From positions 160,001 to 224,000 of the forward strand of contig JAVHQC010000035.1 of assembly GCA_036170915.1 (NCBI GenBank): DNA of 64,000 nucleotides, read 5' to 3'. How positions within the stretch are numbered: the first letter of the stretch is position 1; each line of letters begins with the position of its first letter. Origin of the DNA: Cyanobacteria bacterium auto_48_18. GTDB lineage: Bacteria; Cyanobacteriota; Vampirovibrionia; Obscuribacterales; Obscuribacteraceae. A program made the position numbers and the translations under genes. A model generated the notes under the pieces. That model worked only from the letters and a program-made list of their open reading frames with translations, ran no database searches and was not told the origin of the DNA. This document shows positions 8,272-59,946 of this stretch, piece after piece.

Positions 8272-9537
8272 ATGGCTGAACGCAGGGTAGTTATAACTGG
8301 TTTAGGGATGGTGACTCCGGTAGGCATCGGCAAAGATGTATGCTGGCAAGCACTTCTGGCTGGCGAGTCCGGTGTGGCCCCAATCACACAATTTGACCCC
8401 ATTGCCATTGGTCTCGAAACTAAAATTGCCGCTGAAGTAAAAAACTTCAATATTCAAGACTTCTTCCCCGACAAGCGCAAAGTCGGCGGCATGCTCAAAG
8501 AAATGGATCGCGTCACACTTTTGGCTATGGCAGCGGCAAAATTGGCTCTCGAAGATGCCAACTTTGATATGTCAAAAGAACAAGCCGAACGAGTCGGCAC
8601 CTTCTTAGGAACAGGTGTGGGTGGTCTGATTACAACCACGGCCGATCACATCAAACTGCTGGAAGGCGGACCGCGAAAGCTTGGCTTGCGTTCAGTGATT
8701 AGACTGATGCCCAATGCCCCAGCCGGACAGGTCGCCATCGAATATGGTGCCAAAGGTCGAGCTAAGGCCGACTCTACTGCCTGTGCCAGCGGCCTTGATT
8801 CACTTTTCGACGCATTCATGTACATCAAAGATAACCGCGCCGACGCCATGATTTCAGGTGGTTGCGAAGCCGCCATTAACGCTTTCAGCATGGCTTCATT
8901 CGGTAATATGATGGCCCTATCAAAACGCAATGATGATCCTAAAGGGGCCAGTAGGCCATTTTCCAAAGACAGAGATGGTTTTGTCATCGGCGAGGGTGCA
9001 GTGGTTCTTATTCTCGAAGAATTAGAACACGCAGTTAATCGGAAAGCGCACATCTATGCCGAGATTGTAGGGGGCGGTGCTAGTTGCGACGCTTATCATA
9101 TTGTCGCGCCGCACGAGACCGGTGAAGGCGCTGTAACAGCCATGCGTGAGGCATTGAGAGACGCAAAAATTACGCCTGAAGACCTCGATTACATAAATGC
9201 GCACGGCACTTCCACCCCACTTAATGACGAGCGCGAAACCATTGCCATTAAGACCGTGCTGGGCGAGCACGCCTACAAAATTCCAATCTCAAGCACTAAG
9301 TCGATGGTAGGCCATTTGCTTGGTGGTGCTGGTGCTATCGGCACTGCGGTAGCAGCTTTGAGCTTGCACGACCAAAAAGTTCATCCCACCATCAACCTCA
9401 ATAATCCAGACCCTCTCTGCGATCTCGATTATGTGCCCAATGTTGCCCGCGAAGTCAAAATGGAATACGCCATGGTTGAAGCCTTAGGCTTCGGTGGTCA
9501 CAACACAGTGCTCATCCTTAAGCGCTACACGGCCTGA
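8272..9537 (+). CDS. fabF: Beta-ketoacyl-ACP synthase II
   Basis: RRVVITGLG, TACASG (catalytic Cys), NAHGTST, GHLLGGAG, GFGGHN. Confidence 0.96.
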   Translation: MAERRVVITGLGMVTPVGIGKDVCWQALLAGESGVAPITQFDPIAIGLETKIAAEVKNFNIQDFFPDKRKVGGMLKEMDRVTLLAMAAAKLALEDANFDMSKEQAERVGTFLGTGVGGLITTTADHIKLLEGGPRKLGLRSVIRLMPNAPAGQVAIEYGAKGRAKADSTACASGLDSLFDAFMYIKDNRADAMISGGCEAAINAFSMASFGNMMALSKRNDDPKGASRPFSKDRDGFVIGEGAVVLILEELEHAVNRKAHIYAEIVGGGASCDAYHIVAPHETGEGAVTAMREALRDAKITPEDLDYINAHGTSTPLNDERETIAIKTVLGEHAYKIPISSTKSMVGHLLGGAGAIGTAVAALSLHDQKVHPTINLNNPDPLCDLDYVPNVAREVKMEYAMVEALGFGGHNTVLILKRYTA

Positions 9538-12500
9538 TTGAGCTTTTGATTTCTTTTTCTTGGTGGGCCAGGCATAACTGTGCGCGACAGTTGGTCCGGG
9601 TCGGCAGAATTTGAATTGGAAGCTACGGCAGCATTGTTATTGGCCGCAGCTATTGGTGATACTGCTGCTGGTGACTCGTTGTCATCATCATCATCATGAT
9701 TAGATTGATTTGCCACTACAGAAGATCCGCCTTGTTCAAGGATATCAGCTTCGGTTTGTTCTTCACCTTCGCCCACTGTACCGCGACCAACGCCACCTTC
9801 ATTAGCGGATGCAGCCAGTGATGAGAACATCTGCTTGGTATCAGATGTGGTTCTATTGCCCACGGTGCCGCCGCCGACTATATTGGCCATAGAACTGGCC
9901 ACGGTAGCAGTATCACGTCGGGTAGCTGCGTTTGAGTTCATCAGCGAAACAGGCGTGTTCAGTTTGAGTGAAAACGCAGAAGGCATATTGAATCTATCGC
10001 TGGCCGGCTTCTCAAAGCCTTTATCTACGTCAGATCGGCGGGTAGATCTAATCAAGTTCTGAGCTGCAATAAACGAGATAGTAGTGGTATCAGCAGGTGT
10101 TTCAGCACCTTTGCCGCGGAAATGCTCACTGCCATACATGCTAATAAGAGCGCGTTTTTGATTGTAGTCAGGATCATTGACGTTGAGGCCAAAAGCGCCT
10201 ACATCAGACATTTTGTAGAAATTGTCTTGCCCGACGCTGCGAGATGCCACGCCGTTGTCTTGCGGTACTACTCTGTTCTGGCGACCGGCGGCAAAGGCAT
10301 TGCGCACCACGGTTTGACCGTTGGCAGTGAAAGTGACATTCTCTCTGGCAGGAACTGCTTGAGCACTTACTGGCTTCACTTTGATTTCGGTTTTATCTAA
10401 GTTAGTATCAGGATTAACTATTGGTCTGTCACCACCTATCGTGCCAGCCTTGGTTTCAATGACAGCGCCAGCTTTGACGTCGCTACCATTTTGCGTATTC
10501 TCTACGGCTTTAACTTCAGGAGTGGCAGTTAGAGATTGATCAAGATCAGGAGCAAAATTTTGAATTGGCCTGTCATCTTCCATACGATTGCTGACAAAGA
10601 TCGTTGCTAAGCCAGCAGCCATGCCAGTTCCGCTCACAGTTCTAATGAAATTAGGATTAAAGAACATAGAACGGTTGTTGGCAAAAATAATATCGTTTGC
10701 CGACAAGTTTCTCATCATGGCGCCGGTCTGGCCGTTACCACCAATAAGCGGCAACATTTGACTGCGCACCGCAAGGAAGTCGACGAATTTCGATGCAGCA
10801 GAATTGCCTGCCAGACTAACTGTTTTGAAACCTTCAGAAGTAAGACCGGCAAGCAACAGCTTGTCTGAAGCAACTTTATTGCCTTCTGCTGCTAGTTTAA
10901 CGAGATTGCTTCTATAAGCGGCCACTTCAAGTTCATTTGCCGCCACAACCAGCTTGGCCTGTGCTTGTTCGAGCTTGTTAGCCACTTGCATACCGGTATG
11001 ACTTTCAAGATAACGCAGCGTTTGCAATTCGGTTGATGTTTGGCGAATCAACTCTCTTTGTACTACCGAGCTGCTGGAATGGCTTACTTGATTGAATAGA
11101 TTTTCAACATTAGGCAGACGCTTTTCAAACACGCTTTGAGCCAGTACCCTTGCGTCGCTGACAGTTTCGCCAATAGCATTGTGGGCTTGTTTGAGCTGGC
11201 CTACTTCACGAGCGGTTTGCGAACCCACAACTTTTGACGCCGCGATTTCGCGTTCAATAATTGCCAGCTGCTGGTCCATTTGTTTGATTGCTACGCTGCG
11301 ATCGCCGCGCACCATCACATTTTCAGCAGCGCGAGTGTAGTCAGTTACGGCCTGACGCAAAGTCACATTATTTGATAATGCCACATCTTTCGCCACAGTG
11401 CTTTCCAGTACCTGACCAGTTTTGACCAGTGACTGCGCCTGTGCCTCGATTTTCAAAGTGCTTTGCTCTAGAGCTCTCACTTCCAAATTCTGCTTGAGAT
11501 TAGAAACACTGGCTTTGAGATCATCGAGAACTCTCTTGCCTTCTAAAGAACGGTTCATGGCAGACTGGAAGCCAGGTTGTTCAATTTCAGCAGCAAGCTT
11601 TTTGAGGGCAACCGATTGCTGTTCAAAGGTTGAAGCAGTTTTCACTTCCACGGCAGCTTTTTCAATATTGACCAGACGCTGAGAAACGTTAGCGTCCGCG
11701 CGCAGGGTTGAATTTTCTGCCACTCTGGTGCTTAGACCGGCAACGTGATTGGCTTCTTTTGTAATGGCGGCAGTATTTGCTTCAAAACTACGCAAGCCCT
11801 GAGCTTCGACGGCAGCTCTATCAAGCTTAGCCACCGATTGTTTTAACTCCTGATAAATAGCTGCTTTCTCGCCTTTGAATAGAGCCTGGCCACCCAATTC
11901 GTCAATCTTCACCAGTGAATCTTTGATTCTTGCCACGGTGTGAACATCATCCACAGCGTTAGTGAGAGTCTTCGATTGACGCGAAATGAAGTCGAGATTG
12001 TCGGAGACCTGGGCTTGAATAGAGCTAGAAGATTTTTGTGCATGGGCTGCAGTATTGTCGGCCAGGTTAGCTGACAATTTTTCAGTTTGAAGACCAATTT
12101 TTGTAGTTTCGCGTTCGATGGTGCCAACTGTAGCTTCCATTTTTTGCACGCGACCCAAAGCAGCCGAACCATTCTCCAGTTCGACAACACTGGCTCTTAG
12201 ATCTTGAGCAATATTTTTGGCACCACCAGCTTCAAGGTTATCAATGCGATTGCGCACAGATGAAAGTACTTGATTGGTGTTGACACCTTCTTTTAAGGTG
12301 ATTAGCTCTTTTGAGATGCTACTCAGTTCTTGTGTAACTTTTGGCAATTGCAACTCAGGATGGCCTGATTGAGCAATTCTTTCCACTTTGCCCACAGCGG
12401 CAGTGGTCTGTTGACCGAAGCGGCCGATGGTCTCGATGCGCTCGATGGCAAGGGCGGAAGTTTCGATTTTGCTGGCGGCATTGCCCATAGTGGCACTGGA

Positions 12501-15212
12501 AACTTTCATCTCTTCAACCAGTGCAGCCGCTTTCGGATTTTCGGCGAAGAAACGCGAAAATTCAGGCTTGTCGAATTCTTTAATAAGTTGCTGAACTTCC
12601 CGCGCCTGTACGCTGGCATTAGAAGCTCCAGAACTAGAAGGCGTAACTGGTGAGCGGTTATCCAGCACATCATCAATCTTCTTCAAGTTGCTGTTCAAGC
12701 GATCAACAACAGCACCATTGTTTGCACCGCGAGCACCAACTGATTCATCAAGCATTCTAGTCAAGTCACGAGTGCGACCGCTCAAGGTTGCCGCTTCGTT
12801 ATCTAAAATTTTGAGACTGCTCTCAATCTGTTTCAAACTTGTGCGCTCAACCGCTGATGTGGTAACGGTGTTAACGCTGCGGCGCATTTCGACCAGTTCT
12901 TTACCGGCTACCGATTCAAGCACATCTTTGCCGACATTCTGCTCCACTGAGCGCATGGCTTTGCCCAGGTCGTCGACCAGTTGTGGTGTCGCACCTTTTT
13001 CGGCGATTAATTTGAAATTGCTTTGCAGAGCATTGAGAGAGGCTGCGGCATCGCCGTCTAGCTTCAAGCCACTTTCAGTCAGCTTGGCGCTGAAGCTTTC
13101 GACTTTTGCCAGGCCTTGTTCCGCCACAACATTTGTGGCTGGCATTTTAGCGGTGAGCGGCTCTTGCAATTGGAATGGAGATTTTGCAGTAGTTAACTTA
13201 GGTGCCACCGATTCCAGCAATTCACCACCAGCGGCATTAATAGCACCAGTAGTTGTCTTAATTTCTTGCAGTGCGGCTGCAGCCTTGGGATTTTGAGCAA
13301 AGTGCGCGGCAAACTGAGGGCTATCTAGTTGCTTAACGGCGAGGTCAAGCTCTCTGACCGCTGACGGAGTGGTGACACCCCTTTCTAAAATTTCGTCGAT
13401 TTTGCGAACAGAGCTGGTCAATTCGCCGGTATTGGCCACTCGGCTATCAGCAATGGCGTCAACCAGTTTGGTGGTCTGCTGACCCAGGTTGGCGGTCTGC
13501 GCTTCTACCAATTGGACTTGTGATCTTGCAGTACCTAAATTAGGTGTCAGTGCGTTCAACAAATCGTCTCCACCAGCTGCATTTTTAATAGCACCAGTGG
13601 TTGTTTTAACTTCTTGCAGTGCGGCTGCAGCTTTTGGATTTTCAGCAAAGTAAGCTGCATATTGAGGGCTATCTAGTTGCTTAACGGCAACGTCAAGCTC
13701 TTTGACTGCTGACGGAGTGGTGACACCCCTTTCTAAAATTTCGTCGATCTTGCGAACAGAGCTGGTTAATTCGCCGGTATTGGCCACTCGACTATCAGCA
13801 ATGGCATCCACCAGTTTGGTGGTCTGCTGGCCCAGGTTAGTTGCTTGAGCTTCCACCACTTTGATGTCTTTTATTACCGGAGCGTCAAAGTCGGGAGCTT
13901 TAATAGTGGTCTCAGCCTTAGCAATATTGGGCTTAGCACCACTTTCGAGCACAACTTCAGATCTAGTTACCGCGGTTTCACCGGTTACAGGTTTTACTAC
14001 GGGCACTTCTTTAGACGGCAGGACAGGCACTTCTTTATTTGGAAGCACCGCATCTTTTACAGGAACTACCGCGTCTTTTACAGGAACTACCGGGTCTTTT
14101 ACAGGAACTACCGGGTCTTTTACAGGAACTACCGGGTCTTTCACAGGAACTACGGCGTCTTTTACGGTTTCGCCGGTTATGACTTTCGGTGTGCTAGCTG
14201 CATCACCAATTTTACTCTCGCCCACCGGACGAGTAATAACGGGCTCAACAGGAGGGGTTTTGCCATCTAAGTGAACCGGCTTCGCGACAACTGGCGCGTC
14301 AGGCACAACCTTAGTATCGATTTTGACGTTAGCGCCCAACTTGATATCAGCAGCTGGAACGACAGCGTCGTCGATTGCCTTGATCACTCCTCCTGCTGGT
14401 TTAACTTCGACTCCAGCAAAACTGCGAGAAGGAGAAGGGGTAGCAAATGGCAGTTCAAATTTTGTCGACAATCCTTTAAGAGGATTGTTGGTGCTCAACC
14501 AATCAATTTTGTTGGCCATTGATTGACCAAAAGTAGTGACAGGTTTGATTGCTGTTGATTCGGCAGCCCTAACCACAAGGCCTTCCGGCACGCGGCGGCC
14601 AGAAAGAACGGCTACGTCATTCAGCTCGGGAGTGCTGCTACGTGTAAGAACAGTGCGCACGTCAGACACCAAACTGCGAGCAGCCACGGTACGAGCCATG
14701 GCGGACTCGGCACCAACGATGGCCTCAGTGCGCGCACCGACTTTACCGGCAGTGCTGGAACCGCCAAATCCGGCGGTGAAAACGGTAAAGATGGCAGCAC
14801 CAGCAAGGTGATAGCGCTCTTTGGTGGAACCATGATCAATTACAGCAGCGGCTTTGACGGTTTCGTCTTTTAAGGCTTTGGCTGTCGCCACCGGATTGCT
14901 GACAATATCTTTGACATTTGCGGCGATGTTGCCGACTACACCCTGACTGTTGCTCTTCTTACCAGCAACGATGTCGGCAGTACTCTGATGGCGAGTGACA
15001 ATTGCCAGGGTACCGAGAGCCGCGTCGGCCATCCCGGAGGTCAGGCTACTGAGATTAGAAGACCAGCTGGATTCTTCTTTTTTGACGAACTTTGCTTCTG
15101 GAGCTTTTGGTTTGGAAGCCAGCAGGTCGCCCGCTAAATTTGCAGCAGGAGTGCTAGGAGCCTTAACTGGCTCGTCTGGTTTCTCACTCGATGCTTGTGG
15201 ATTTTTGGGCAT
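9525..15212 (-). CDS. Giant (1895 aa) hypothetical Ala/Ser/Val/Lys-rich protein with internal repeats
   Basis: 5.7-kb uninterrupted ORF; no recognisable enzyme motif; no classical signal peptide. Confidence 0.85.
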   Translation of the reverse strand: MPKNPQASSEKPDEPVKAPSTPAANLAGDLLASKPKAPEAKFVKKEESSWSSNLSSLTSGMADAALGTLAIVTRHQSTADIVAGKKSNSQGVVGNIAANVKDIVSNPVATAKALKDETVKAAAVIDHGSTKERYHLAGAAIFTVFTAGFGGSSTAGKVGARTEAIVGAESAMARTVAARSLVSDVRTVLTRSSTPELNDVAVLSGRRVPEGLVVRAAESTAIKPVTTFGQSMANKIDWLSTNNPLKGLSTKFELPFATPSPSRSFAGVEVKPAGGVIKAIDDAVVPAADIKLGANVKIDTKVVPDAPVVAKPVHLDGKTPPVEPVITRPVGESKIGDAASTPKVITGETVKDAVVPVKDPVVPVKDPVVPVKDPVVPVKDAVVPVKDAVLPNKEVPVLPSKEVPVVKPVTGETAVTRSEVVLESGAKPNIAKAETTIKAPDFDAPVIKDIKVVEAQATNLGQQTTKLVDAIADSRVANTGELTSSVRKIDEILERGVTTPSAVKELDVAVKQLDSPQYAAYFAENPKAAAALQEVKTTTGAIKNAAGGDDLLNALTPNLGTARSQVQLVEAQTANLGQQTTKLVDAIADSRVANTGELTSSVRKIDEILERGVTTPSAVRELDLAVKQLDSPQFAAHFAQNPKAAAALQEIKTTTGAINAAGGELLESVAPKLTTAKSPFQLQEPLTAKMPATNVVAEQGLAKVESFSAKLTESGLKLDGDAAASLNALQSNFKLIAEKGATPQLVDDLGKAMRSVEQNVGKDVLESVAGKELVEMRRSVNTVTTSAVERTSLKQIESSLKILDNEAATLSGRTRDLTRMLDESVGARGANNGAVVDRLNSNLKKIDDVLDNRSPVTPSSSGASNASVQAREVQQLIKEFDKPEFSRFFAENPKAAALVEEMKVSSATMGNAASKIETSALAIERIETIGRFGQQTTAAVGKVERIAQSGHPELQLPKVTQELSSISKELITLKEGVNTNQVLSSVRNRIDNLEAGGAKNIAQDLRASVVELENGSAALGRVQKMEATVGTIERETTKIGLQTEKLSANLADNTAAHAQKSSSSIQAQVSDNLDFISRQSKTLTNAVDDVHTVARIKDSLVKIDELGGQALFKGEKAAIYQELKQSVAKLDRAAVEAQGLRSFEANTAAITKEANHVAGLSTRVAENSTLRADANVSQRLVNIEKAAVEVKTASTFEQQSVALKKLAAEIEQPGFQSAMNRSLEGKRVLDDLKASVSNLKQNLEVRALEQSTLKIEAQAQSLVKTGQVLESTVAKDVALSNNVTLRQAVTDYTRAAENVMVRGDRSVAIKQMDQQLAIIEREIAASKVVGSQTAREVGQLKQAHNAIGETVSDARVLAQSVFEKRLPNVENLFNQVSHSSSSVVQRELIRQTSTELQTLRYLESHTGMQVANKLEQAQAKLVVAANELEVAAYRSNLVKLAAEGNKVASDKLLLAGLTSEGFKTVSLAGNSAASKFVDFLAVRSQMLPLIGGNGQTGAMMRNLSANDIIFANNRSMFFNPNFIRTVSGTGMAAGLATIFVSNRMEDDRPIQNFAPDLDQSLTATPEVKAVENTQNGSDVKAGAVIETKAGTIGGDRPIVNPDTNLDKTEIKVKPVSAQAVPARENVTFTANGQTVVRNAFAAGRQNRVVPQDNGVASRSVGQDNFYKMSDVGAFGLNVNDPDYNQKRALISMYGSEHFRGKGAETPADTTTISFIAAQNLIRSTRRSDVDKGFEKPASDRFNMPSAFSLKLNTPVSLMNSNAATRRDTATVASSMANIVGGGTVGNRTTSDTKQMFSSLAASANEGGVGRGTVGEGEEQTEADILEQGGSSVVANQSNHDDDDDNESPAAVSPIAAANNNAAVASNSNSADPDQLSRTVMPGPPRKRNQKLNQAV
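13238..13858 (-). repeat. Internal duplication of about 270 bp in giant ORF (about 13238-13510 and 13586-13858, offset 348 bp)
   Basis: Near-identical peptide NLGQQTTKLVDAIADSRVANTGELTSSVRKIDEILERGVTTPSAV..LD.AVKQLDSPQ occurs twice. Confidence 0.95.
14040..14165 (-). repeat. 21-bp tandem repeat (VKD[P/A]VVP, about 6 copies) in giant ORF
   Basis: tttacaggaactaccgggtct units seen directly. Confidence 0.95.
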
Positions 15213-35892: not shown

Positions 35893-36621
35893 ATGTATAA
35901 GCGGCGCGACAGCCGGCAATGGGACCAGCTTAGACCGGTCAAGTTTACGAGAAATTTCACCAAGAATGCAGACGGCTCAGTGCTGGTTGAAATTGGTGAT
36001 ACCAAAGTATTCTGCACCGCAAAAATCGAAGAGCGCGTACCCGCCTTTTTAATCGGCAAGGGTGAAGGTTGGATCACAGCCGAATATTCCATGCTGCCGG
36101 GCTCTACCTTGCAGCGCTCGCAAAGAGAAGTGACTCGAGGACAGGCCTCAGGCCGCACCAATGAAATTCAGCGCTTGATCGGTCGCTGTTTAAGAGCAGT
36201 GGTAGACCGCCGCGCTTTGGGCGAGCGTACCATCACAATTGACTGCGATGTTTTGCAGGCTGACGCCGGCACTCGTGTCTCTTCCATCTGTGGCGGTTTT
36301 TTGGCACTTTATGATGCGTTGAGCAAACTGCGTAAAGCTGGTGTGTTTGATGAGTTGCCGATTACCGAGCACATGGCGGCAGTTTCAGTGGTGCAAATCA
36401 ACGGCCAGCTATTGCTTGACCCTAACTACAGCGAAGACTCGCAAGCGGAGATGGACAGCAACATAGTTCTGACCGAATCGGGCAAAATTCTCGAATTGCA
36501 GATGACCTCTGAAACCAAACCTTATGACGCCGCCAAGCTGACCGATTTGATGCTCCTTGCCAACAAAGGTGTGAAAGAGATCATCAGCATGCAGCAACAA
36601 ATTATCAATAAACGCAATTAG
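35893..36621 (+). CDS. rph: Ribonuclease PH
   Basis: GWITAEYSMLPGST, SGRT.EIQRLIGR.LR, DCDVLQADAGTR. Confidence 0.96.
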   Translation: MYKRRDSRQWDQLRPVKFTRNFTKNADGSVLVEIGDTKVFCTAKIEERVPAFLIGKGEGWITAEYSMLPGSTLQRSQREVTRGQASGRTNEIQRLIGRCLRAVVDRRALGERTITIDCDVLQADAGTRVSSICGGFLALYDALSKLRKAGVFDELPITEHMAAVSVVQINGQLLLDPNYSEDSQAEMDSNIVLTESGKILELQMTSETKPYDAAKLTDLMLLANKGVKEIISMQQQIINKRN

Positions 36622-36647
36622 AGAAAAACCTCGAGTTTTTCTGTAAG
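36618..36647. repeat. 30-bp palindromic element, copy 1 (TTAGAGAAAAACCTCGAGTTTTTCTGTAAG)
   Basis: 29/30 identical to 39796-39825; overlaps rph stop codon. Confidence 0.9.
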
Positions 36648-36831: not shown

Positions 36832-38397
36832 GTGACAATTCAAGAAAGTATCGATTTTAATCCAGAAGAGTTCAACCCAATTCGGGAGAGCTTTAGAGAC
36901 GTGAGCCCTATGCGGCTTGTCCTCTCTACTCTAGCGGTGTTCGAACGCATTCGCAAACTGCAGGGATGGAAAGGCGCGCTGCGAGTCATTCCTATTGTCT
37001 GGACGATTATCTGGTCAGTCAAAGGTTTTTCGCGTTTTCATGCCGAAGAGTTTGAACGTGCCAGCCGCGGCGACGCCGTGGACGACGTTGAAGAAGCAGC
37101 ACTGACCAACAAAGACTACGAACAATACAGAGAATTGGGCCGCTGGCTTTGCAGGCGTCTCAACGCCCTCGGTCCAACTTTTGTCAAAATTGGACAGACT
37201 TTGTCTACCAGAGCAGATTTGCTCCCGCTGCCAGCCATGCTTGAGCTGACTCGGCTGCAAGAAAACGTTGATCAATTTCCAACTGAGACCGCTCGAGCAA
37301 TTATCGTTCGCGAATTAGGCGCTCAGCCAGAAGAGCTCTACAAAGAATTCAACAATGTACCGATTGCCGCCGCCAGCTTGTCGCAGGCTTACCGGGCCAC
37401 GTTGGAAGACGGCCGTGATGTTGTCGTAAAGGTGCAGAGACCAGATCTAAGTAGCATCATCGTCATGGATGTGCAGATTCTTGCTGCTGTGGCCGACGAA
37501 GTGATGAAGTATCCCAGCCTTTGCCGCCACACGGAATGGCCAGGTGTGGTGGACGAATTTGCTAAAACTATTTTTGAAGAAATCGATTATATTCGCGAAG
37601 GCCGCAACGCGGACATTTTCAGGAGTTCGTATCGTAATTTCGATCGCATCTATATTCCTCGCATTGTCTGGAAACTGACAGGTCGTCGAGTTCTAACTAT
37701 CGAATACGTCTCAGGCATTCCCATCAATGATGCCGCAGGCATTGCTGCCATGGGCCTTGACGCTGAAGAAATTACAAAAATTGGCGCCAATTTCTACTTG
37801 CGTCAATTGCTTGAAGAAGGATTTTTCCACGCAGACCCGCACCCGGGCAACATGCGAGTGATGGAAGATGGCCGCGTGGGTATTTTTGATTTTGGCATGG
37901 TGGGTCGCATCACCCCTGAGCTCAAACAGCACATGGTCAATGCTTTCATGCATACCATTCAAAGAGACTACCGTGAGCTTGTGGACGACTTTGTCGGCAT
38001 GGGTTTCCTCAAACCAGAAGCCGATCGCGATGCTCTATGTCGCGACCTCGCGCCCATCATCGACGCCCGTTTTGCTGATGGTATGAGCAAAGTGCGTTTC
38101 CGTAAAATGCTTTTCGACTTCTCTGAAGTCTGCTTCGCTTATCCTTTCCGCCTGCCATCTGAGTTTACTTATGTCATGCGCGCCTTACTGACACTGGAAG
38201 GCATTGCGCTGACCATTAATCCGAAATTCAATTTTGTTGATGCTGCTATGCCTTTTGCTCACAGACTGGTGATGAAAAACAATCAGTTCCTTGGCCAGGC
38301 AATCTTCAAAGAAGTATTCACTGACGGCAAGTTTAATCGCCGCGCAGCCATTAAACTAATTAAGTCGGCAGCCCAACTCACAAGCTCACTGCTCTAA
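36832..38397 (+). CDS. ABC1/AarF/UbiB family atypical kinase
   Basis: LGPTFVKIGQ.LSTRADL, PIAAASL.Q, VVVKVQRP, FFHADPHPGN, DFGM. Confidence 0.95.
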   Translation: MTIQESIDFNPEEFNPIRESFRDVSPMRLVLSTLAVFERIRKLQGWKGALRVIPIVWTIIWSVKGFSRFHAEEFERASRGDAVDDVEEAALTNKDYEQYRELGRWLCRRLNALGPTFVKIGQTLSTRADLLPLPAMLELTRLQENVDQFPTETARAIIVRELGAQPEELYKEFNNVPIAAASLSQAYRATLEDGRDVVVKVQRPDLSSIIVMDVQILAAVADEVMKYPSLCRHTEWPGVVDEFAKTIFEEIDYIREGRNADIFRSSYRNFDRIYIPRIVWKLTGRRVLTIEYVSGIPINDAAGIAAMGLDAEEITKIGANFYLRQLLEEGFFHADPHPGNMRVMEDGRVGIFDFGMVGRITPELKQHMVNAFMHTIQRDYRELVDDFVGMGFLKPEADRDALCRDLAPIIDARFADGMSKVRFRKMLFDFSEVCFAYPFRLPSEFTYVMRALLTLEGIALTINPKFNFVDAAMPFAHRLVMKNNQFLGQAIFKEVFTDGKFNRRAAIKLIKSAAQLTSSLL

Positions 38398-38405
38398 ATT
38401 CAATA

Positions 38406-39770
38406 TTGAAGAATTCTCGAAAACTGCTGGCCCTCCTGCTAGACCTAGTTACGCTCGTGCTCGTGCTGACAGCAGGCTTTGCTGTGGTGACAAACCTTGG
38501 CCAGACCCTGGCAAAGAACGCCAACGTGTACACCACTGCTGCCAACGGCAGTTTTCAGCACATTGATTTCATCAGCTATTACATGGCCGGCACCCTCGCT
38601 CGTGCGGACAGCGAAACCCGCCTCAAAGCATATGATCCGGCAGTACAGCTCAGACTTTACAACGCAATTATTGCTCCGGCAAAAATCGATAGACCAATTT
38701 TTCTCAACTATCCACCATACGCATTCAGTCTGATGGTGCCATTTACTTTTCTGCCACTGCGCGTAGCCTATCTGCTCTGGGATACTCTTTCTTTACTAGC
38801 TGGTATTGCCGCCTTAATTTGGGCCGGTAGGACAGCCGGCAAAATCACCAATTATCCGAAGTCAGCGCTGGCAGCACTGGCCTGCTTATTTGCTCTTTCC
38901 TTTCCGGGTTGCGACGCTCTAATGGACGGCCAGCTTACCTGGTGGTTCATTGCTTTAATTGCCCTTGCTTATGTAGGCCTCAAGCGTAATAACGATTATT
39001 TAGCCGGCGCAGCCACGGCTATGCTTGCCTTAAAACCACACTTTTTCCTTTTTATGGTGATACCGCTCTTAGTATCAAAGCGCAAAAAGGCAATTTTCAC
39101 CTGCGCAGCAGTAATGAGTATTTTGCTTCTACTTGCCGCTGCCAACCTGGGTTTTGAGAATGTCTTGAATTATCCCAAAATTGTTCTGGCAGGAGAAAAT
39201 GTAGAATTATGCCCCATGACTTTTCCTGAGCGCATGGTTTGTTTGCGCGGACCGGCCAGCATTTTTCTCAACCATGATTGGTATATGCGCCTTGCTTTTG
39301 GCGGCTTCATTGTCGGCCTTGGCGCTTACTTTTTTATTTTCAAAAAAACCTTTCAAAAGGCGCCTGGACTCAGTTTGGAGACGGCATACGGCCTGGCTAT
39401 TCCCATTCTACTTACTCTCAGCCCTCACATGCACGTTTATGATTGTGCACTACTGGCAATACCAGCGGTTTTGCTCCTTCCTTCTATCAGGCCTTCGCAA
39501 TTGCTGAGAGAAAAACCTCTGGCTTTTAAACTCTATAGCTTACTAATTTGTTCCTACTTTTTACTTTCCTGGCTGATTATGGTTTGCGCTCCAGGCCTGG
39601 GCGCTCTCTTACCTGCTGACCTGCAAGCAAAGCTCAGCGTCAATGATATTCCTTGCGCCCTGCTTAGTTTTTACGTTTATCTGATGGTTGATGTGGTGCT
39701 CTTTGTTTTACTGGCAGCTTCTGCTTTTTCGGAGCCTCATCCGGTTGCAAGGCCTGAGCAGGCTGAGTGA
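38406..39770 (+). CDS. GT87/DUF2029 polytopic membrane glycosyltransferase
   Basis: DF.SYY.AG, YPP, GQ, LKP, SPH...YD motifs; many TM helices. Confidence 0.85.
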   Translation: MKNSRKLLALLLDLVTLVLVLTAGFAVVTNLGQTLAKNANVYTTAANGSFQHIDFISYYMAGTLARADSETRLKAYDPAVQLRLYNAIIAPAKIDRPIFLNYPPYAFSLMVPFTFLPLRVAYLLWDTLSLLAGIAALIWAGRTAGKITNYPKSALAALACLFALSFPGCDALMDGQLTWWFIALIALAYVGLKRNNDYLAGAATAMLALKPHFFLFMVIPLLVSKRKKAIFTCAAVMSILLLLAAANLGFENVLNYPKIVLAGENVELCPMTFPERMVCLRGPASIFLNHDWYMRLAFGGFIVGLGAYFFIFKKTFQKAPGLSLETAYGLAIPILLTLSPHMHVYDCALLAIPAVLLLPSIRPSQLLREKPLAFKLYSLLICSYFLLSWLIMVCAPGLGALLPADLQAKLSVNDIPCALLSFYVYLMVDVVLFVLLAASAFSEPHPVARPEQAE

Positions 39771-39795: not shown

Positions 39796-39825
39796 TTACA
39801 GAAAAACCTCGAGTTTTTCTGTAAG
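39796..39825. repeat. 30-bp palindromic element, copy 2 (TTACAGAAAAAC-CTCGA-GTTTTTCTGTAA-G)
   Basis: Perfect 12-bp inverted arms with 5-bp spacer. Confidence 0.9.
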
Positions 39826-53622: not shown

Positions 53623-55875
53623 TTATTCGTTGTCTGGAATCGGAGCGCCATCAGGCAAGGTCGGAGAAGTCTTTTGGTGACGTTCTGCGCGGCCGGATGA
53701 ATAGTGGCGTTCATCAACTACAGTTGGTTCAACCTGGAAGATGTTCATGTCACGAGGCCCTTCCACTCTGCCGATTTCTTCAGGAAGCTTGAGCTGACCT
53801 GGAGTACCGGGAAGAATGATTTCTGGTCTGACGGCAACAACAAGTTCGCTTTCGTTCTTGTTGAAGGCCTTCGACCGGTAAAGAGCGCCCAATACAGGAA
53901 CTTCGCCCAGTAGAGGAGTCTTGTTCAATTCTCTACCAACGTTGGTTGTGACCAAGCCGGAGAGATAGAGTTCTTGTCCTGGTTTAAGTTCAACAATGCT
54001 CTGGGTCTTTCTGGTGGTGAAGCCAGGAATAGAAGAACCTGTACCGAAAGTAAACGCAAGTTCGTTTGAGATGATTCTTTCTTCTGGTGAAATTTGCAAG
54101 TTAATGGTGCCATTTTCTTGCAGAACAGGAATCATGTTGAGACGAAGACCGAACGGTTCAAAGGTAACCGATGCCAGTGATTGGCCGGCGGTTGCGATTT
54201 GCTGAATGATTGGGATTTCTCCACCAGCCAGAAACGCAGCCCGTTCTCCAGAAATAGTCACCAGTGTTGGCTCAGCCAGAACCCGTGCTCTTCTTTGAGA
54301 AATGATGCCTTGAATAGTCGGGTTAACCGATACGCTACCGAAGTTAGAGATACCAGTAAACAGGTTGAACAAGTTAGCAGAGCCTAAAGTGGCACCACCA
54401 GGAGCAGCTAGCAGAATTGCTTGTGACAGCAATGATGATGCTGGGCCAACAGGTGTACCTTGACCAACACCGGTAACGAAAGTCGGTGTGAGGAAGCTAA
54501 CTGGTTGAAGGCTGCTGCCCTGACCATAGACAGGCAATCCGTTCACACCCGAGGGTCCGAAGAGTACCTGTGGCTGAATAGTTTGCATACCCTGACGGAA
54601 GCGAGCGCCCGTTTCAGAGTTCAGAACGACGTTGTTAGCTAAGTTTGTACCAGTACCACCAACACCGAAGGAGAAGTACTTACCGGCCATGCCAACGCCC
54701 ACTTGCAGAGCAAGTTCGCGGGAAGCCGATGTGTTCATCTCCATAAACGTGCAGTGCAGAGCAATCAAAGGCACTTTGCGCACTTTGACTAAACTCGTTA
54801 CCCGGCCACCATCAGAAGCCATAACCTGGGCTTTGCTAATGTTGTTTGGCAAGTTACCGAAGAAAGTGTATCTATCGACGGAGTTCAACTGTGCTAGCTG
54901 GCCAGATTGACCACCACCACCTGAGGTACTACCACCGGTTTCACCAATTTTGCCGTTAACGATTCTTCCGTTCACAACTTGAATGTTCATGCCGCGATCG
55001 TCCATGAACACGTTCGAAGCTGCGAAAGCTTTGATGATCGATTCAGGGTGATCAACGTCGCCAGTCAGAAGCACGCGGTCAGAGCCACCAACGGAGAAGG
55101 CTTTAACGATAATGCGAGGGTCAATTTCACGCAGTGTAGTTTGCAACTGTGTGTAATCGCGACTAACGCGCAAATCGACACTTATAGAATTGCCGGCATC
55201 ATCCCAGAGCAACATTGTGCATGTGCCGGGAGCCTTACCAAGAAGTACCATCTGATTTTCAGATACTACTACTGGCTCAGCAATTCCTGGGTCAGAAATT
55301 GATGTGCGAACAATTTTGTTCTTGAATTTAAAAGTTCTCGATTGAGAGACTTTCAAATCAATGGCATTTGTAGTTTTAAATTCTTCGAGTTCTACGGTGC
55401 CTGTCACCACCGGTGGTACCGGTTGAGCAGTAACGTAGGTGCTCTGGTCAGCAGCCTGAGCGACTACTTGATCAGGAGCGTATTGTGCAGCAGTTGGCAC
55501 CGAAGCAGCTTTAGCAGCTGCGCCTGAAACTACAGGAGCGGCGACACTGGAATCAACAGCAGAACTAGCTGAGTGAATTGCCATTGCGGTGCTAGCACCG
55601 GCAGCGCCACTATCTGCTGGAAGGAACAACATGGCATGACTTCCGTCGACGGAATCAACCTTGCTAGCTGGTGCCTTCTTCACCGAGCTAATCGCTTTAG
55701 TAGCGCTTGTGGTAACTCTATGAGCTGCCTTCGACACTTGAGGAGCGGTTGCAGTGGACGATCCGGCCATTCTTTGCCAGATTGCGCCTTGCGACTCCGA
55801 GTGTGCCGACAGCCAATTAGCCTGGAGCAACACTATTGATAGGCTCAAAGCTAAGCTCAACTGGGGCTTATTCAT
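53623..55875 (-). CDS. CpaC/RcpA-type secretin (pilus assembly N-terminal domain + secretin domain), copy 1
   Basis: Signal peptide; ISDPGIAE...LLGKAPGT; LAEPTLVTISGE.A.FLAGGEIP; TTRK.Q..VEL..GQ; P.LGEVPVLGALYRS..F.K.ESELV. Confidence 0.92.
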   Translation of the reverse strand: MNKPQLSLALSLSIVLLQANWLSAHSESQGAIWQRMAGSSTATAPQVSKAAHRVTTSATKAISSVKKAPASKVDSVDGSHAMLFLPADSGAAGASTAMAIHSASSAVDSSVAAPVVSGAAAKAASVPTAAQYAPDQVVAQAADQSTYVTAQPVPPVVTGTVELEEFKTTNAIDLKVSQSRTFKFKNKIVRTSISDPGIAEPVVVSENQMVLLGKAPGTCTMLLWDDAGNSISVDLRVSRDYTQLQTTLREIDPRIIVKAFSVGGSDRVLLTGDVDHPESIIKAFAASNVFMDDRGMNIQVVNGRIVNGKIGETGGSTSGGGGQSGQLAQLNSVDRYTFFGNLPNNISKAQVMASDGGRVTSLVKVRKVPLIALHCTFMEMNTSASRELALQVGVGMAGKYFSFGVGGTGTNLANNVVLNSETGARFRQGMQTIQPQVLFGPSGVNGLPVYGQGSSLQPVSFLTPTFVTGVGQGTPVGPASSLLSQAILLAAPGGATLGSANLFNLFTGISNFGSVSVNPTIQGIISQRRARVLAEPTLVTISGERAAFLAGGEIPIIQQIATAGQSLASVTFEPFGLRLNMIPVLQENGTINLQISPEERIISNELAFTFGTGSSIPGFTTRKTQSIVELKPGQELYLSGLVTTNVGRELNKTPLLGEVPVLGALYRSKAFNKNESELVVAVRPEIILPGTPGQLKLPEEIGRVEGPRDMNIFQVEPTVVDERHYSSGRAERHQKTSPTLPDGAPIPDNE

Positions 55876-55984
55876 TCAACTCTCCCTCTATGAACTCCCG
55901 AACTGTTTTCCGATTGCTTTCGAATACTGGGAGCATTCATGGTAAAGCCGGCACGAGACCGACCAGTACAGAAGCTTAACACGA
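55810..55984 (-). repeat. 175-bp perfect direct repeat, copy 1 (promoter/5'UTR + first 22 codons of secretin)
   Basis: Identical to 58566-58740 by direct comparison. Confidence 0.95.
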
Positions 55985-56224
55985 GTACTTGAGCAATGCA
56001 CTGATTTTTTCTATCAGGCACCACACATTCAACATTGACTTAACACAGCTTTATTCAGTAGTCGTGTATTCCTGCACAGCAGCCCGTCTTGGCCGATCAA
56101 AGTAAACCGCGACAGATGCCAATGACAACCATATGTGGTGCACGATTGGTCATCGCAAGCATGTATGTCAAGAACAAACTTCTACACATTTTTCTTGCAT
56201 TAGTAAATTTTCAATTTCAAGCTA

Positions 56225-56257
56225 AAAGAGGGAACAGCCTGCGCCACTCCCTCTCTT
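56225..56257 (-). terminator. Possible terminator hairpin after secretin copy 2
   Basis: agaggga...tccctct stem; short T tract on minus strand. Confidence 0.5.
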
Positions 56258-56282
56258 AAATTTGTCGTGAACAGAAAACGAT

Positions 56283-58631
56283 TTATTCGTTATCTGGAAC
56301 AGGAGCACCATCAGGCAACGTTGGTGAAGTCTTCTGGTGACGTTCTGAGCGTCCACTGGTGAAGTGGCGTTCATCAAGCACCGAAGGCTCAACTTGGAAC
56401 ATGTTCATGTCGCGAGGACCTTCTGTACGACCGATTTCTTCAGGCAATTTGAGTTGTCCTGGAGTACCGGGCAAGATAATTTCAGGTCTAACCGAAATCA
56501 CAAGTTCACTTTCGTTTTTGTTGAATGCTTTAGAGCGATAGAGGGCACCAAGCACAGGCACTTCACCGAGAATCGGCAATTTAGAAGTTTCTCTACCGAT
56601 GTTGGTTGATACCAAACCAGCGATATAGAGTTCTTGCCCTGGCTTGAGTTCAACTACCGTCTGAGTTTTACGAGTTGTAAAACCAGGGACGATACCGTTA
56701 CCCTGACCGAATACTGAGAAGGCAAGGTTATTGGCTAACAAGCGCTCTTCAGGTGATACCTCTAAGTTGATGACGCCATTCTCTTGCAGAATTGGAATCA
56801 TATTGATTCTCATACCGAAAGGTTCAAACACCACCGATTGTTGAGCAGTACCACCAGCAGCGATAGCTTGCAAAATTGGAATTTCGCCGCCCGCTAAGAA
56901 GGATGCACGTTCACCAGACAGAGTTACCAGTGTGGGCTCGGCCAGTACTCTGGCTCTACGTGAACTGATAATGCCCTGAACAGTAGGATTCACCGAGAAA
57001 GTCGTAGCACCATTACCGAACAAGCTGTTGGAGGTGAAAATGTTGGCAGCTTGCTGGGCGTTGAAGGTGACACCACCAGGAGCACCAAGCAATACTGACT
57101 GACCAAGCAGGCCACTAGGACTGAGCAAAGTGCCCTGACCAATACCGGTTCCGACGGCCTGGTTGGTGACGAAAGACACAGGCTGGAGAACATAACCAGA
57201 GTTGAAGCTGGGGTTGATGCCTTGGGCGTTAGTTGGTATCGGAGCAGTGTTTTGAGCAGGAGTTACAGAGCCGAGCGGTGTATAGGCTCTCTGGCCCGGC
57301 ACACTGGATATCGGTCCTGAGTTAACAGCATTGGCAGTACCACCAATACCAAACGAGAAGGTCTTGCTAGATACACCGAAACCAAGGGATACGGCCAACT
57401 CTCTAGCAGCACTGGTATTCATTTCTAAGAAAGTAACGTGCAGCACGATCAAAGGCACTTTGCGCACTTTAACCAGGCTGGTGACGCGACCACCGTCAGA
57501 AATCATTACTTGTGATTTGCCAATGTTGTTAGCGTTGTTGCCGAAGAACGTGTAACGGTCAACGGTACCAAGGCTGGCCAATTGACCAGACGAACCACCA
57601 CCCGCGGTAGCACCGCCGGTTTCTCCGATACGACCGGCAACAAGTCTGTTATTAGCAACTTGAATGTTCATACCGCGGTCATCCATATAAACGTTCGATG
57701 CGGCGAACGCTTTAATGATTGACTCAGGGTGATCAACATCACCAGTTAAAAGCACTCTGTCAGATCCACCGACCGAGAAAGCCTTAACTACGATGCGGGG
57801 ATCGATTTCGCGCAGTGTTGATTGCAGTTGAGCATAATCACGGCTGACACGAAGGTCGATTGATACCGAGTTACCGGCATCGTCCCAGAGAACCAGAGTT
57901 GATGTGCCAGGAGCTTTACCGAGAAGAACCAACTGGTTTTCTGCCACTACAACTGGTTCGGCAACGCCTGGGTCAGAAATAGAGGTTCTTACAATTTTGT
58001 TCTTCAATTTAAAAGTACGCGATTGCGAAACTTTTAAGTCGATAACGTTAGTAACTTTGTACTCTTCAAAATCGAGAGTACCAGTCACCACTGGTGGTAT
58101 CGGCTGCGGTGTGAGATTAGTATGGTCTGATTGCGCCAGTAAATAATCTGGTGCTAACTGAGCCAACATATTCTTGGAAGAGGCTGTGCTAGCTGCGGTC
58201 GATGGCAACGCTGCCAACTGACGAGGAGCAGCTTCGCCGGTTATGTCCGGAGCCGTCACCGGAGAAAGATCAGCCGTTTCGACTGGAGCAGCGCCAGCGC
58301 TGTCTAGTGGCAAGCCGGGGTGAATCGTTAACGCTGCTGCAGGTGCCGCACCGCCAGCGCCGAGTTCTCTACCTTTAGATAGGAACAACATCGCGTGACT
58401 TGCGTCTACTGCATCAGTCTTAGCAACTGGCGCTTTCTTCGCCGAATTTGCTAATTTGATATTTGTGGCAACTCTCTGAGTTGACCGGGACACACCTGTA
58501 CCTGCCGAGTTGGCAGAACTGGCCATTCTTTGCCAGATTGCGCCTTGCGGCTCAGATTGTGCCTGCAGCCAATTAGCCTGGAGCAACACTATTGATAGGC
58601 TCAAAGCTAAGCTCAACTGGGGCTTATTCAT
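56283..58631 (-). CDS. CpaC/RcpA-type secretin, copy 2
   Basis: Same motifs as copy 1; identical N-terminal 22 aa and near-identical C-terminus. Confidence 0.92.
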   Translation of the reverse strand: MNKPQLSLALSLSIVLLQANWLQAQSEPQGAIWQRMASSANSAGTGVSRSTQRVATNIKLANSAKKAPVAKTDAVDASHAMLFLSKGRELGAGGAAPAAALTIHPGLPLDSAGAAPVETADLSPVTAPDITGEAAPRQLAALPSTAASTASSKNMLAQLAPDYLLAQSDHTNLTPQPIPPVVTGTLDFEEYKVTNVIDLKVSQSRTFKLKNKIVRTSISDPGVAEPVVVAENQLVLLGKAPGTSTLVLWDDAGNSVSIDLRVSRDYAQLQSTLREIDPRIVVKAFSVGGSDRVLLTGDVDHPESIIKAFAASNVYMDDRGMNIQVANNRLVAGRIGETGGATAGGGSSGQLASLGTVDRYTFFGNNANNIGKSQVMISDGGRVTSLVKVRKVPLIVLHVTFLEMNTSAARELAVSLGFGVSSKTFSFGIGGTANAVNSGPISSVPGQRAYTPLGSVTPAQNTAPIPTNAQGINPSFNSGYVLQPVSFVTNQAVGTGIGQGTLLSPSGLLGQSVLLGAPGGVTFNAQQAANIFTSNSLFGNGATTFSVNPTVQGIISSRRARVLAEPTLVTLSGERASFLAGGEIPILQAIAAGGTAQQSVVFEPFGMRINMIPILQENGVINLEVSPEERLLANNLAFSVFGQGNGIVPGFTTRKTQTVVELKPGQELYIAGLVSTNIGRETSKLPILGEVPVLGALYRSKAFNKNESELVISVRPEIILPGTPGQLKLPEEIGRTEGPRDMNMFQVEPSVLDERHFTSGRSERHQKTSPTLPDGAPVPDNE

Positions 58632-58740
58632 TCAACTCTCCCTCTATGAACTCCCGAACTGTTTTCCGATTGCTTTCGAATACTGGGAGCATTCATGGTA
58701 AAGCCGGCACGAGACCGACCAGTACAGAAGCTTAACACGA
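58566..58740 (-). repeat. 175-bp perfect direct repeat, copy 2
   Basis: Identical to 55810-55984 (offset 2756). Confidence 0.95.
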
Positions 58741-59220
58741 CTGCTGCACAGTTGCACTAATCTTTTTCACACGGCACCATACATTCAACACTGGCTTAAC
58801 ACTTATCTCATTACAACAGCCAAGAGCATGACAGAGCCGTCAATTCTGGCGATCGTGTTTTTTAGGGATTGCGGTATTTGACAACCAGGGGTGGTGCCTA
58901 ATTGGTCTAGTAATATCGTCATAACTATGTATGTCAAGTGAGTCACCTAACCAAAAAGATATCGAAGGGCACCACCTGTGGAGACATGATTTTCTACTTA
59001 TCTTTTTTCGGCCAATGTCAAGCAGTAATTCTCTCTCAAAATCCTGTCCCCGTTTTATTACAATGATGTGGATTGAAGTGAGTGATGGGCCTGGGTTAAC
59101 CATAGCCCTGTCAAGAACAGAGTGTCGCTAACTGAGCGGCCTGAATAACCTTATATAGTGGTATATTCTTCAAATAACTTACTAAACAAATTAGTCAGCA
59201 CAATAAAAAGGAACTTAGCA

Positions 59221-59946
59221 GTGGATAACACTTCCGAACAAGAAAAAGTTCTGGTGGTCGATGATGAAGCCTCAATTCGGCGCATCCTCGAAACCCGGCT
59301 AAAGCTTGCCGGATATAACGTTGCAACAGCAGCCGACGGCCAAGAAGCACTCGAGCAGTTCAACGCATTCCAGCCAGACCTGGTCATCTTAGACGTCATG
59401 TTGCCAAAGATGGACGGCTACGAAGTTTGTAGAGAAATTCGCAAGACTTCTGATACGCCAATCATCATGTTGACTGCCGTTGCCGACGTTTCCAATCGCA
59501 TTCAAGGCTTGGAAATTGGTGCTGATGACTATGTGGTCAAGCCGTTCAGCCCCAGCGAATTGGAAGCCCGCATCAAAGCGGTTCTACGTCGCACAGTTGA
59601 ACGCCACCAAGAAGTTGGCCAGAGCAAAAGCTCTAACGTAATTACGATTGGTAATCTGAAAATCGATCTCAACAAGCGTCAAGTGACCCGTAAGAACGAA
59701 AGAATTCGCCTTACCGGAATGGAATTCAGCTTGTTGGAATTACTGGTGACCAATTCAGGCAAGCCTTATTCGCGCGGTGAAATCTTGCAACAAGTATGGG
59801 CCTATCCTCCTGATCACCGCATCGATACTCGCGTTGTCGATGTGCACATCAGTCGCCTGAGATCAAAACTGGAAGAAGATTCGTCTAATCCTGATTTGAT
59901 TTTGACCGCTCGCGGAATCGGCTACATGTTTCAAAAAATAAACTAA
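59221..59946 (+). CDS. rpaB: OmpR-family response regulator, RpaB/Ycf27 orthologue
   Basis: EKVLVVDDEASIRRILETRL, ERIRLTGMEFSLLELLV, DTRVVDVHISRLR.KLE, LILTARG.GY.FQ match cyanobacterial RpaB as I recall it; GTG start with AAGGA RBS. Confidence 0.9.
   Translation: MDNTSEQEKVLVVDDEASIRRILETRLKLAGYNVATAADGQEALEQFNAFQPDLVILDVMLPKMDGYEVCREIRKTSDTPIIMLTAVADVSNRIQGLEIGADDYVVKPFSPSELEARIKAVLRRTVERHQEVGQSKSSNVITIGNLKIDLNKRQVTRKNERIRLTGMEFSLLELLVTNSGKPYSRGEILQQVWAYPPDHRIDTRVVDVHISRLRSKLEEDSSNPDLILTARGIGYMFQKIN

Follow-up and report, generated by a model that had tools for sequence, protein, structure and literature searches.

Two tandem secretin genes, A and B, each coding for an outer-membrane pore of an adhesive pilus, lie on the minus strand of the window analysed here (64,000 nt, positions 160,001 to 224,000 of contig JAVHQC010000035.1) and share an identical segment of 175 bp, reaching from 109 nt upstream of the start codon to 66 nt into the coding sequence. 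The host, genome G000 (4.9 Mb, 86% complete), belongs to an uncultured, non-photosynthetic sister group of the photosynthetic cyanobacteria in which gene control is barely known. The joint explanation that we favour, with moderate confidence, combines a duplicated unit, selection and gene conversion with a folded 5′ untranslated region (UTR) protecting the Shine-Dalgarno (SD) sequence. An ancestor of the clade would have duplicated a whole transcription unit of promoter, leader, Tad-secretin gene and terminator, after which the coding cores diverged into the A and B lineages. Purifying selection would have kept the promoter blocks and the 5′ UTR close to frozen in both copies, and their near-identity would repeatedly have seeded short conversions that erased the last differences in G000, leaving both pore genes under one control. 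Coordinates below are window positions, and signed positions are relative to the secretin start codon.

56283-58631, minus strand: secretin gene A, 782 aa, RcpA/CpaC type, with PF00263 and PF13629 and a match to RcpA (PDB 8odn)
53623-55875, minus strand: secretin gene B, 750 aa, same Pfam domains, first 22 codons converted from A
58566-58740, minus strand: exact 175-bp tract, copy A, -109 to +66
55810-55984, minus strand: exact 175-bp tract, copy B, -109 to +66, one shared 175-nt contig in run X1
55765-55793, minus strand: second exact tract of 29 bp (partner 58521-58549), with A-type bases at +87, +90 and +96 in B

Self-comparison of the window gives 175 of 175 matching positions between 55810-55984 and 58566-58740, at an offset of 2756. 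Past codon 25 the two genes agree at 114 of 260 four-fold sites, so the identity lies far beyond chance. The first-pass annotation of this DNA had claimed both the base-for-base identity and the synonymous divergence of the remaining gene parts, and both claims hold; the sequence it quoted, the -10-like element, the two stems and the ribosome-binding site (RBS) are all present as given. Patchy homology between the copies reaches about 190 bp further upstream, and the 29-bp tract is probably the remnant of a longer and presumably older conversion. The genome-wide blastn search that had been proposed, together with a covariance-model search, returned these two copies of the tract alone in G000.

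The identity could also have been produced by assembly smoothing, with a few single-base differences merged by bubble removal. All evidence from the sequencing runs (X1, X2, X3 and X16) consists of contigs that break at the repeat. In X1, the probable source, 55810-55984 forms a single 175-nt contig with no alternative letters and with unique contigs on its flanks. Its depth of 19.3 compares with 13.3-14.6 in the flanks, which is a 1.4-fold and not a 2-fold excess and counts against a perfect identity. The depth falls short of a doubling (about 28 expected), and variants are lost from contigs of this kind, so the copies may still hide a few differences of one base each; by rough arithmetic about three would yield the observed depth, which is about two standard deviations low under read sampling. 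Several observations nevertheless argue against smoothing. The shared piece in X16 has a depth of 19.4 against flanks of 9.84 and 10.8, and in the sister-species lineage G009 (L106 and L139 are the same over the compared stretches and are counted with it) two contigs each end in precisely 99 nt of a repeat 178 nt long. The assemblies of 11 relatives retain 2-4 leader and 9-11 early coding differences between A and B, where G000 has none. The G009 haplotype combines the B-type base at -43 with the A-type base at -31, a mosaic at sites 12 nt apart for which one merged bubble is insufficient and which therefore needs real exchange between the copies. Smoothing would moreover leave the conservation between species unexplained. 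We consider it distinctly unlikely: the feature itself is real, and its base-perfect identity rests on contigs.

Selection and conversion in the paired copies

Orthologues were compared among 12 same-genus genomes (G000 and the 11 relatives; 66 pairs for A, 55 for B). Over the 109-nt leader they differ by 0.5% for A and 1.5% for B, compared with 36% and 38% at four-fold sites. Each UTR block of A is invariant in the 11 relatives, and the spacer at -245 to -175 shows 0.31-0.33 differences per site. Because the blocks are invariant where the spacer drifts at 0.33, the pattern fits selection acting block by block and does not fit a sweep or a locally reduced mutation rate. Purifying selection is thereby shown to have left the 5′ UTR and the promoter blocks almost unchanged in A and B alike. 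The leader is conserved above neutral sites and keeps a fixed position before this secretin family, as would be expected of a cis-regulatory RNA. On the other side of the balance, synonymous sites hardly vary in the opening 80 codons of A and 42 codons of B, and the early synonymous sites of the divergent neighbour rpaB are likewise frozen, those of ahcY and of an acetylesterase gene not. As the freezing runs on for 40-80 codons and is also found in rpaB, part of the constraint is not specific to leader structure. Such stretches, at 58392-58631 and 59221-59460 (the 5′ end of rpaB), span the first 40-80 codons in 10-11 same-genus genomes.

The conversion is recorded at sites diagnostic for the two paralogues. 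Between -43 and +62 all diagnostic sites in gene B of G000 have the A-type base, whereas +67, +68 and +75 have B-type bases. This is a contiguous A-type block inside B with a sharp edge, and contigs of runs X2, X3 and X16 stop at the same +66 edge (55839 and/or 58595). The converted signal peptide is also found in G009 and in L131, whose B retains the B-type base at -31. In the G009 lineage A equals B over -112 to +66, this shared sequence differs from that of G000 at -43, -28 and -27, and the four-fold divergence from B of G000 is 0.337. A quickly built protein tree (63 rows) makes the A and B genes of the clade sisters (support 100), with an A group at 95 and a B group at 98; in a quick tree computed from 24 leaders a B clade is rejected (p-AU 0.0024). 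The copies are thus closer within a genome than to their orthologues, contrary to the gene tree, which is the pattern of concerted evolution. Conversion from A to B is shown for +30 to +62 and likely extended to single leader bases. In our reading, the signal peptide was converted once, long ago, from A to B, and each lineage later underwent conversions of its own.

That selection acted alone and the copies never exchanged sequence is extremely improbable. This reading would fit the A/B differences at -43 and -31 that are fixed across the 11 relatives and that make clear that conversion is not constant. Against it, ten diagnostic coding positions from +30 to +62, several of them synonymous, turn A-type as one block, and private bases are common to both copies within a species. 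The block switch already contradicts selection alone, barring a mis-assembly that affects all members of the clade. The two coding copies of G023 (C5:449817-455002) also differ at 1 of 2298 nt with merely 17 upstream nt in common, their promoters and leaders being different. The protein cores of A and B are identical in G023, L078 and L079, so homogenisation at the tandem locus is recurrent and elsewhere affects the coding part. The first-pass annotation had offered selection on an RNA or recent conversion as alternatives. Each is needed, selection for the conservation among orthologues and conversion for the paralogue-diagnostic sites and the species-specific shared haplotypes, and it is the either/or that falls away.

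Numerous other lineages have only 47-62 nt between A and B and lack a second promoter. This clade has a gap of 370-590 nt before B, which has its own promoter, and a terminator-like hairpin after A:

56224-56257, minus strand: terminator-like hairpin 3′ of A, read from the sequence and not called by the terminator scan

By eye, relatives whose B has its own promoter carry a hairpin and U-run at the same place after A.

Taken alone, the identity is ordinary concerted evolution, in which gene conversion acts on a regulatory region under strong selection. Segmental concerted evolution by conversion is described for the Helicobacter pylori pairs babA/babB, homA/homB and sabA/sabB in the sections of PMC3960876 drawn on here. 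As in that account, surface-protein genes share a segment that is closer within than between genomes, and the rest is divergent. Unlike the H. pylori segments as described there, the segment here takes in the promoter, the leader and the signal peptide of two genes lying next to each other in tandem, and the bacteria are uncultured, environmental and show no sign of antigenic or phase variation. The duplicated promoter is a clear example from nature in which selection and gene conversion have reinforced one another.

A candidate structured leader

From its sequence the leader is predicted to consist of an extended -10 promoter and a 5′ UTR of about 90 nt. The RNA is probably folded and apparently undescribed. 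Its putative elements are as follows.

58703-58721 (copy A) and 55947-55965 (copy B), minus strand: hairpin P1 near the predicted 5′ end, two registers possible
58696-58701 (A) and 55940-55945 (B), minus strand: conserved single-stranded linker UUAC(C/U)A
58650-58690 (A) and 55894-55934 (B), minus strand: helix P2 with variable loop; arms in A GCUCCC (58685-58690) and GGGAGU (58650-58655)
58632-58647 (A) and 55876-55891 (B), minus strand: conserved RBS block, with SD-like GGGAG at 58638-58642 in A

A covariance model built from 35 leaders was run on 107 genomes of the order and matches 57 of them, among these G000. The matches all fall within one family, Obscuribacteraceae, with at most two per genome, and 24 of 25 that were checked abut a secretin start, the weakest being spurious. 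The RBS block also stands before leaderless B genes with the 47-62-nt intergenic gap. Searches of the window leader against Rfam gave no match to any model at E up to 10, and no family reached its gathering threshold. Nine further loci searched at E up to 5 yielded six sub-threshold matches, one of which overlaps a leader; this match, to cow-rumen-3, lies on the opposite strand, scores 18 bits versus 86.7 and is an unrelated, chance-level hit. The literature searched, mostly open-access and with supplementary motif lists outside its scope, held no description of the leader or of the secretin gene pair, and no leader RNA for RcpA/CpaC-type secretins. The candidate motif appears to be new and is narrow in range.

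The evidence for structure centres on P2. Counts refer to 46 leaders with motif-anchored arms, one of 47 (L093) having been dropped as misparsed. In pairs 2-6, 228 of 230 cells can pair, across loops of 16-63 nt. Pair 4 occurs as C-G, U-A or U-G and pair 5 mostly as C-G or U-A. Parsimony on a tree built without the arms shows that 11 of 13 changes in pairs 1-6 preserve pairing, and U-A was reached four times independently from C-G. The covariation score of 42 P2 segments aligned with MAFFT is 0.210 versus 0.178, a score reached by 1 of 500 shuffles, and in this alignment arms slid out of register as controls pair at 25-60%. The predicted probability of P2 exceeds 0.3 in 39 of 47 leaders, with a median of 0.67. 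The larger stem of the first-pass annotation is thereby borne out in its 6-bp core, and the AUGAA/UUCAU pairing below that core lacks conservation. For the small hairpin, which is plausible, two registers compete. The register first proposed is 90% paired with no double change and a 5-nt spacer fixed in most leaders, whereas a shifted register is 93.5% paired with double changes in two of four pairs; P1 is replaced in several lineages.

A number of results weigh against this structural reading. The P2 arms were anchored by motifs, which biases them toward pairing, and kinship inflates the covariation figures. The shuffle controls are mixed, at 1, 14, 120 and 129 of 500: the count of double-change cells, 12 versus 7.4, was reached by 14 shuffles and the percentage paired, 85.0 versus 84.3, by 129. 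Unconstrained RNAalifold on the raw alignment returned the shifted P1 and pairing of the arm with the SD in place of P2. Pairing of the arm with the SD exceeds 0.3 in just 15 of 47 leaders, with a median of 0.08. Fold energies in five windows are no better than those of shuffles (z from -0.48 to +0.46), and no trans partner emerged in G000. Here CsrA was not found in the 86% complete genome, an LSM model gave no match (it responded only in archaeal controls and so has little bearing on Hfq), and exact 11-mers gave no convincing intergenic complement to the leader. Taken together, we rate the covariation support for P2 as moderate. Two other lines of argument were set aside: fold energy, with z near 0, is not usable as evidence of structure, and identity within the genome, from which the first-pass annotation had argued, is not itself evidence for an RNA. 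An upstream open reading frame encoding a leader peptide was also rejected, as the 22-codon frame that ends on the start codon in the window is kept in 17 of 47 leaders. Among RNA data, run X16 (one study, with contigs that lack start and strand) has a contig over 55810-55930 only.

Conservation acting on DNA alone would account for part of these results. Promoter, an operator shortly past the start (the P1 inverted repeat) and a strong RBS, together with conversion, would then suffice and RNA pairing would be incidental. The upstream DNA blocks are conserved equally, the P1 spacer is fixed with no double change in the register first proposed, a linker-like TTACTA also lies inside the far-upstream block, and the fold energy is ordinary. 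However, the P2 arms remain complementary over loops of 16 to 63 nt and change in pairs via U-G intermediates. This weakens the DNA-only explanation, which we consider unlikely, because a DNA site of fixed geometry does not predict paired changes in P2.

In the folded-leader model the UTR would form a 5′ hairpin, the unpaired UUAC(C/U)A linker and P2, the latter ending 6-13 nt before the SD. P2 would sequester a pyrimidine arm otherwise able to pair with the SD and so leave the SD free. With this arm tied up in P2, the most likely function of the leader is to set the level of pore translation, possibly by switching it, and the conserved unpaired bases may be bound by a protein or a small RNA. 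The conserved role would most simply be a free SD together with unpaired bases presented to a trans factor; a true two-state switch is possible. In G000 the P2 and SD-paired states are predicted to lie within 1.5-2 kcal/mol of each other, with probabilities of 0.36 and 0.63, but so few leaders have arm-SD pairing above 0.3 that conservation of a two-state switch is not demonstrated. In our judgement it is distinctly unlikely that the leader is the first member of a new class of translational switch in Obscuribacteraceae, riboswitch or protein- or small RNA-gated, on which conversion keeps both pore genes and their signal peptides. If true, flipping of the arm between P2 and the SD would license synthesis of the Tad pore.

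The narrower proposal, in which a novel riboswitch would sense a ligand and alternate between P2 and SD pairing, is very unlikely. It could draw on the closeness of the two states in G000 and on conserved unpaired bases between two helices directly before the RBS. Its restriction to one family and, with one exception among the checked matches, to one gene at most twice per genome speaks against it, as do the absence of an Rfam match, a balance between states that is not conserved and the replacement of P1 in several lineages. The leader resembles the c-di-GMP-I/II riboswitches in being a two-helix leader before a pilus-related gene. It differs from them in that neither the window leader nor the nine loci gave a match to these models within the E values above, and the sensing of cyclic di-GMP (c-di-GMP) that had been suggested is without support. 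Translational leaders in which an anti-SD sequence and the SD enter alternative pairings include riboswitch expression platforms and protein-bound leaders. The secretin leader is similar to these in forming a structured 5′ UTR directly ahead of the RBS and in having a pyrimidine arm able to pair with the SD or an upstream purine tract; it is unlike them in matching no Rfam family and in the unconserved balance of its two states. In the folded-leader model, which we prefer, these results add a candidate motif for a cis-regulatory RNA that Rfam lacks, together with its alignment and with base pairs open to experimental test, and point to post-transcriptional control of Tad-pilus pore assembly.

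Promoter blocks and secretin context

Upstream of the transcribed part, four sets of DNA elements are present in both copies.

58729-58737 (copy A) and 55973-55981 (copy B), minus strand: extended -10 TG-T-TAAGCT; 0.000 difference per site for A in 11 genomes
58753-58767 (A) and 55997-56010 (B), minus strand: A-tract and GTGCA at the -35 position, spacing fixed across the family
58781-58803 (A) and 56025-56047 (B), minus strand: direct repeat TGTTAAG-N4-TGTTGAA of period 11, candidate activator site
58879-58937 (A) and 56123-56171 (B), minus strand: far-upstream blocks TTGACATACAT and GCACCA-N-TGGTTGTCA

The extended -10, judged by the sigma-70 consensus, presumably acts as the promoter. The first-pass call of this element gains support from family variants, which take solely the form TG-n-TA-nnn-T where the promoter pattern was found, a partly circular result as the search pattern demanded that form. 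A scan with sigma-70 and terminator consensus sequences did not call the extended -10 and gave nothing useful, and the GTGCA element is a poor match to TTGACA. The far-upstream blocks differ by 0.013-0.047 per site compared with 0.31-0.33 in the next spacer and occur in most family members shown. The block TTGACA ... GCACCA-N-GGTTGTCA is kept across the family and was copied before B.

The period-11 repeat occurs in 26 of 36 promoters examined, and a position weight matrix scores its two sites in G000 at 36.5 and 37.9, the next best reaching 18.8. In the excerpt of PMC6525291 used here, the RpaB-bound HLR1 element consists of two (G/T)TTACA(T/A)(T/A) repeats 2 nt apart with a period of 10; compared by eye with that description, the period-11 repeat has a different period and core, and we rejected it as an HLR1 site. 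The fit to the cyanobacterial Pho box, given in the corresponding part of PMC11126600 as three tandem repeats with TTAA cores, is partial, as the conserved repeat has two units and one TTAA core. When G000 was searched for a regulon with the RBS block and the promoter motifs, no other convincing site turned up.

The closest PDB relatives of the secretins are 8jvb and RcpA 8odn (E 1.6e-30 for 8odn), and models for type II secretion, type IV pilus and type III secretion secretins all scored far under cut-off for A and B. By domain content and best matches A and B are RcpA/CpaC-type Tad secretins of Obscuribacterales, a label that the records of named relatives carry. One member of the Obscuribacterales secretin tree, L067, is labelled as a Verrucomicrobiota bin, possibly through mis-binning. 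G000 has three RcpC/CpaB matches, two of which sit with Tad ATPase, TadB/C and TadE-like genes. Tad clusters on contigs C22 and C27 comprise ATPase, TadB/C, TadE and a weak Flp match (E 0.0066); a search of G000 with the Flp family gave no match. As tblastn found no other full secretin in G000 except one distant copy on contig C31, we infer that A and B are orphan pores serving the Tad systems of this genome. Both share with RcpA/CpaC, as covered in the consulted part of PMC10499894, the PF00263 and PF13629 domains, RcpA-type chains as best PDB matches and the presence of Tad clusters in the genome. They are unlike the proteins described there in being two orphan paralogues beside rpaB, distant from the Tad clusters, and in their length of 750-782 aa with a long low-complexity N-terminus. 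The divergent neighbour, which is present in 49 of 53 fetched loci, is:

59158-59946, plus strand: rpaB (NF045944, 366 bits, cut-off 330)

Other observations in the window and genome

The C-terminal tail of both secretins (about 45 aa; 56283-56420 and 53623-53760, minus strand) recurs inside unrelated proteins, possibly as a common module for docking or as a protease bait. In a Pfam-confirmed alpha-2-macroglobulin (A2M) of G000 it lies between the bait-region domain and the A2M domain (C11:81097-81267), with 40-41 of 47 residues identical and many synonymous changes. A second A2M-like protein, assigned by eye, has it at C29:54972-55106 (36-37 of 47 residues). It is also found in a 121-aa protein with a signal-like start and in a 243-aa protein (C21:43965-44138 and C10:40831-40980), and many relatives have matches to the tail only.

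Elsewhere in the window, an open reading frame of 1895 aa (9525-15212, minus strand) contains a 21-bp tandem array at 14011-14178 and an internal duplication of 294 nt (13223-13516 and 13571-13864). A 30-bp near-palindrome, a possible operator or bidirectional terminator, occurs twice (36618-36647 and 39796-39825) and flanks two genes (36832-39770).

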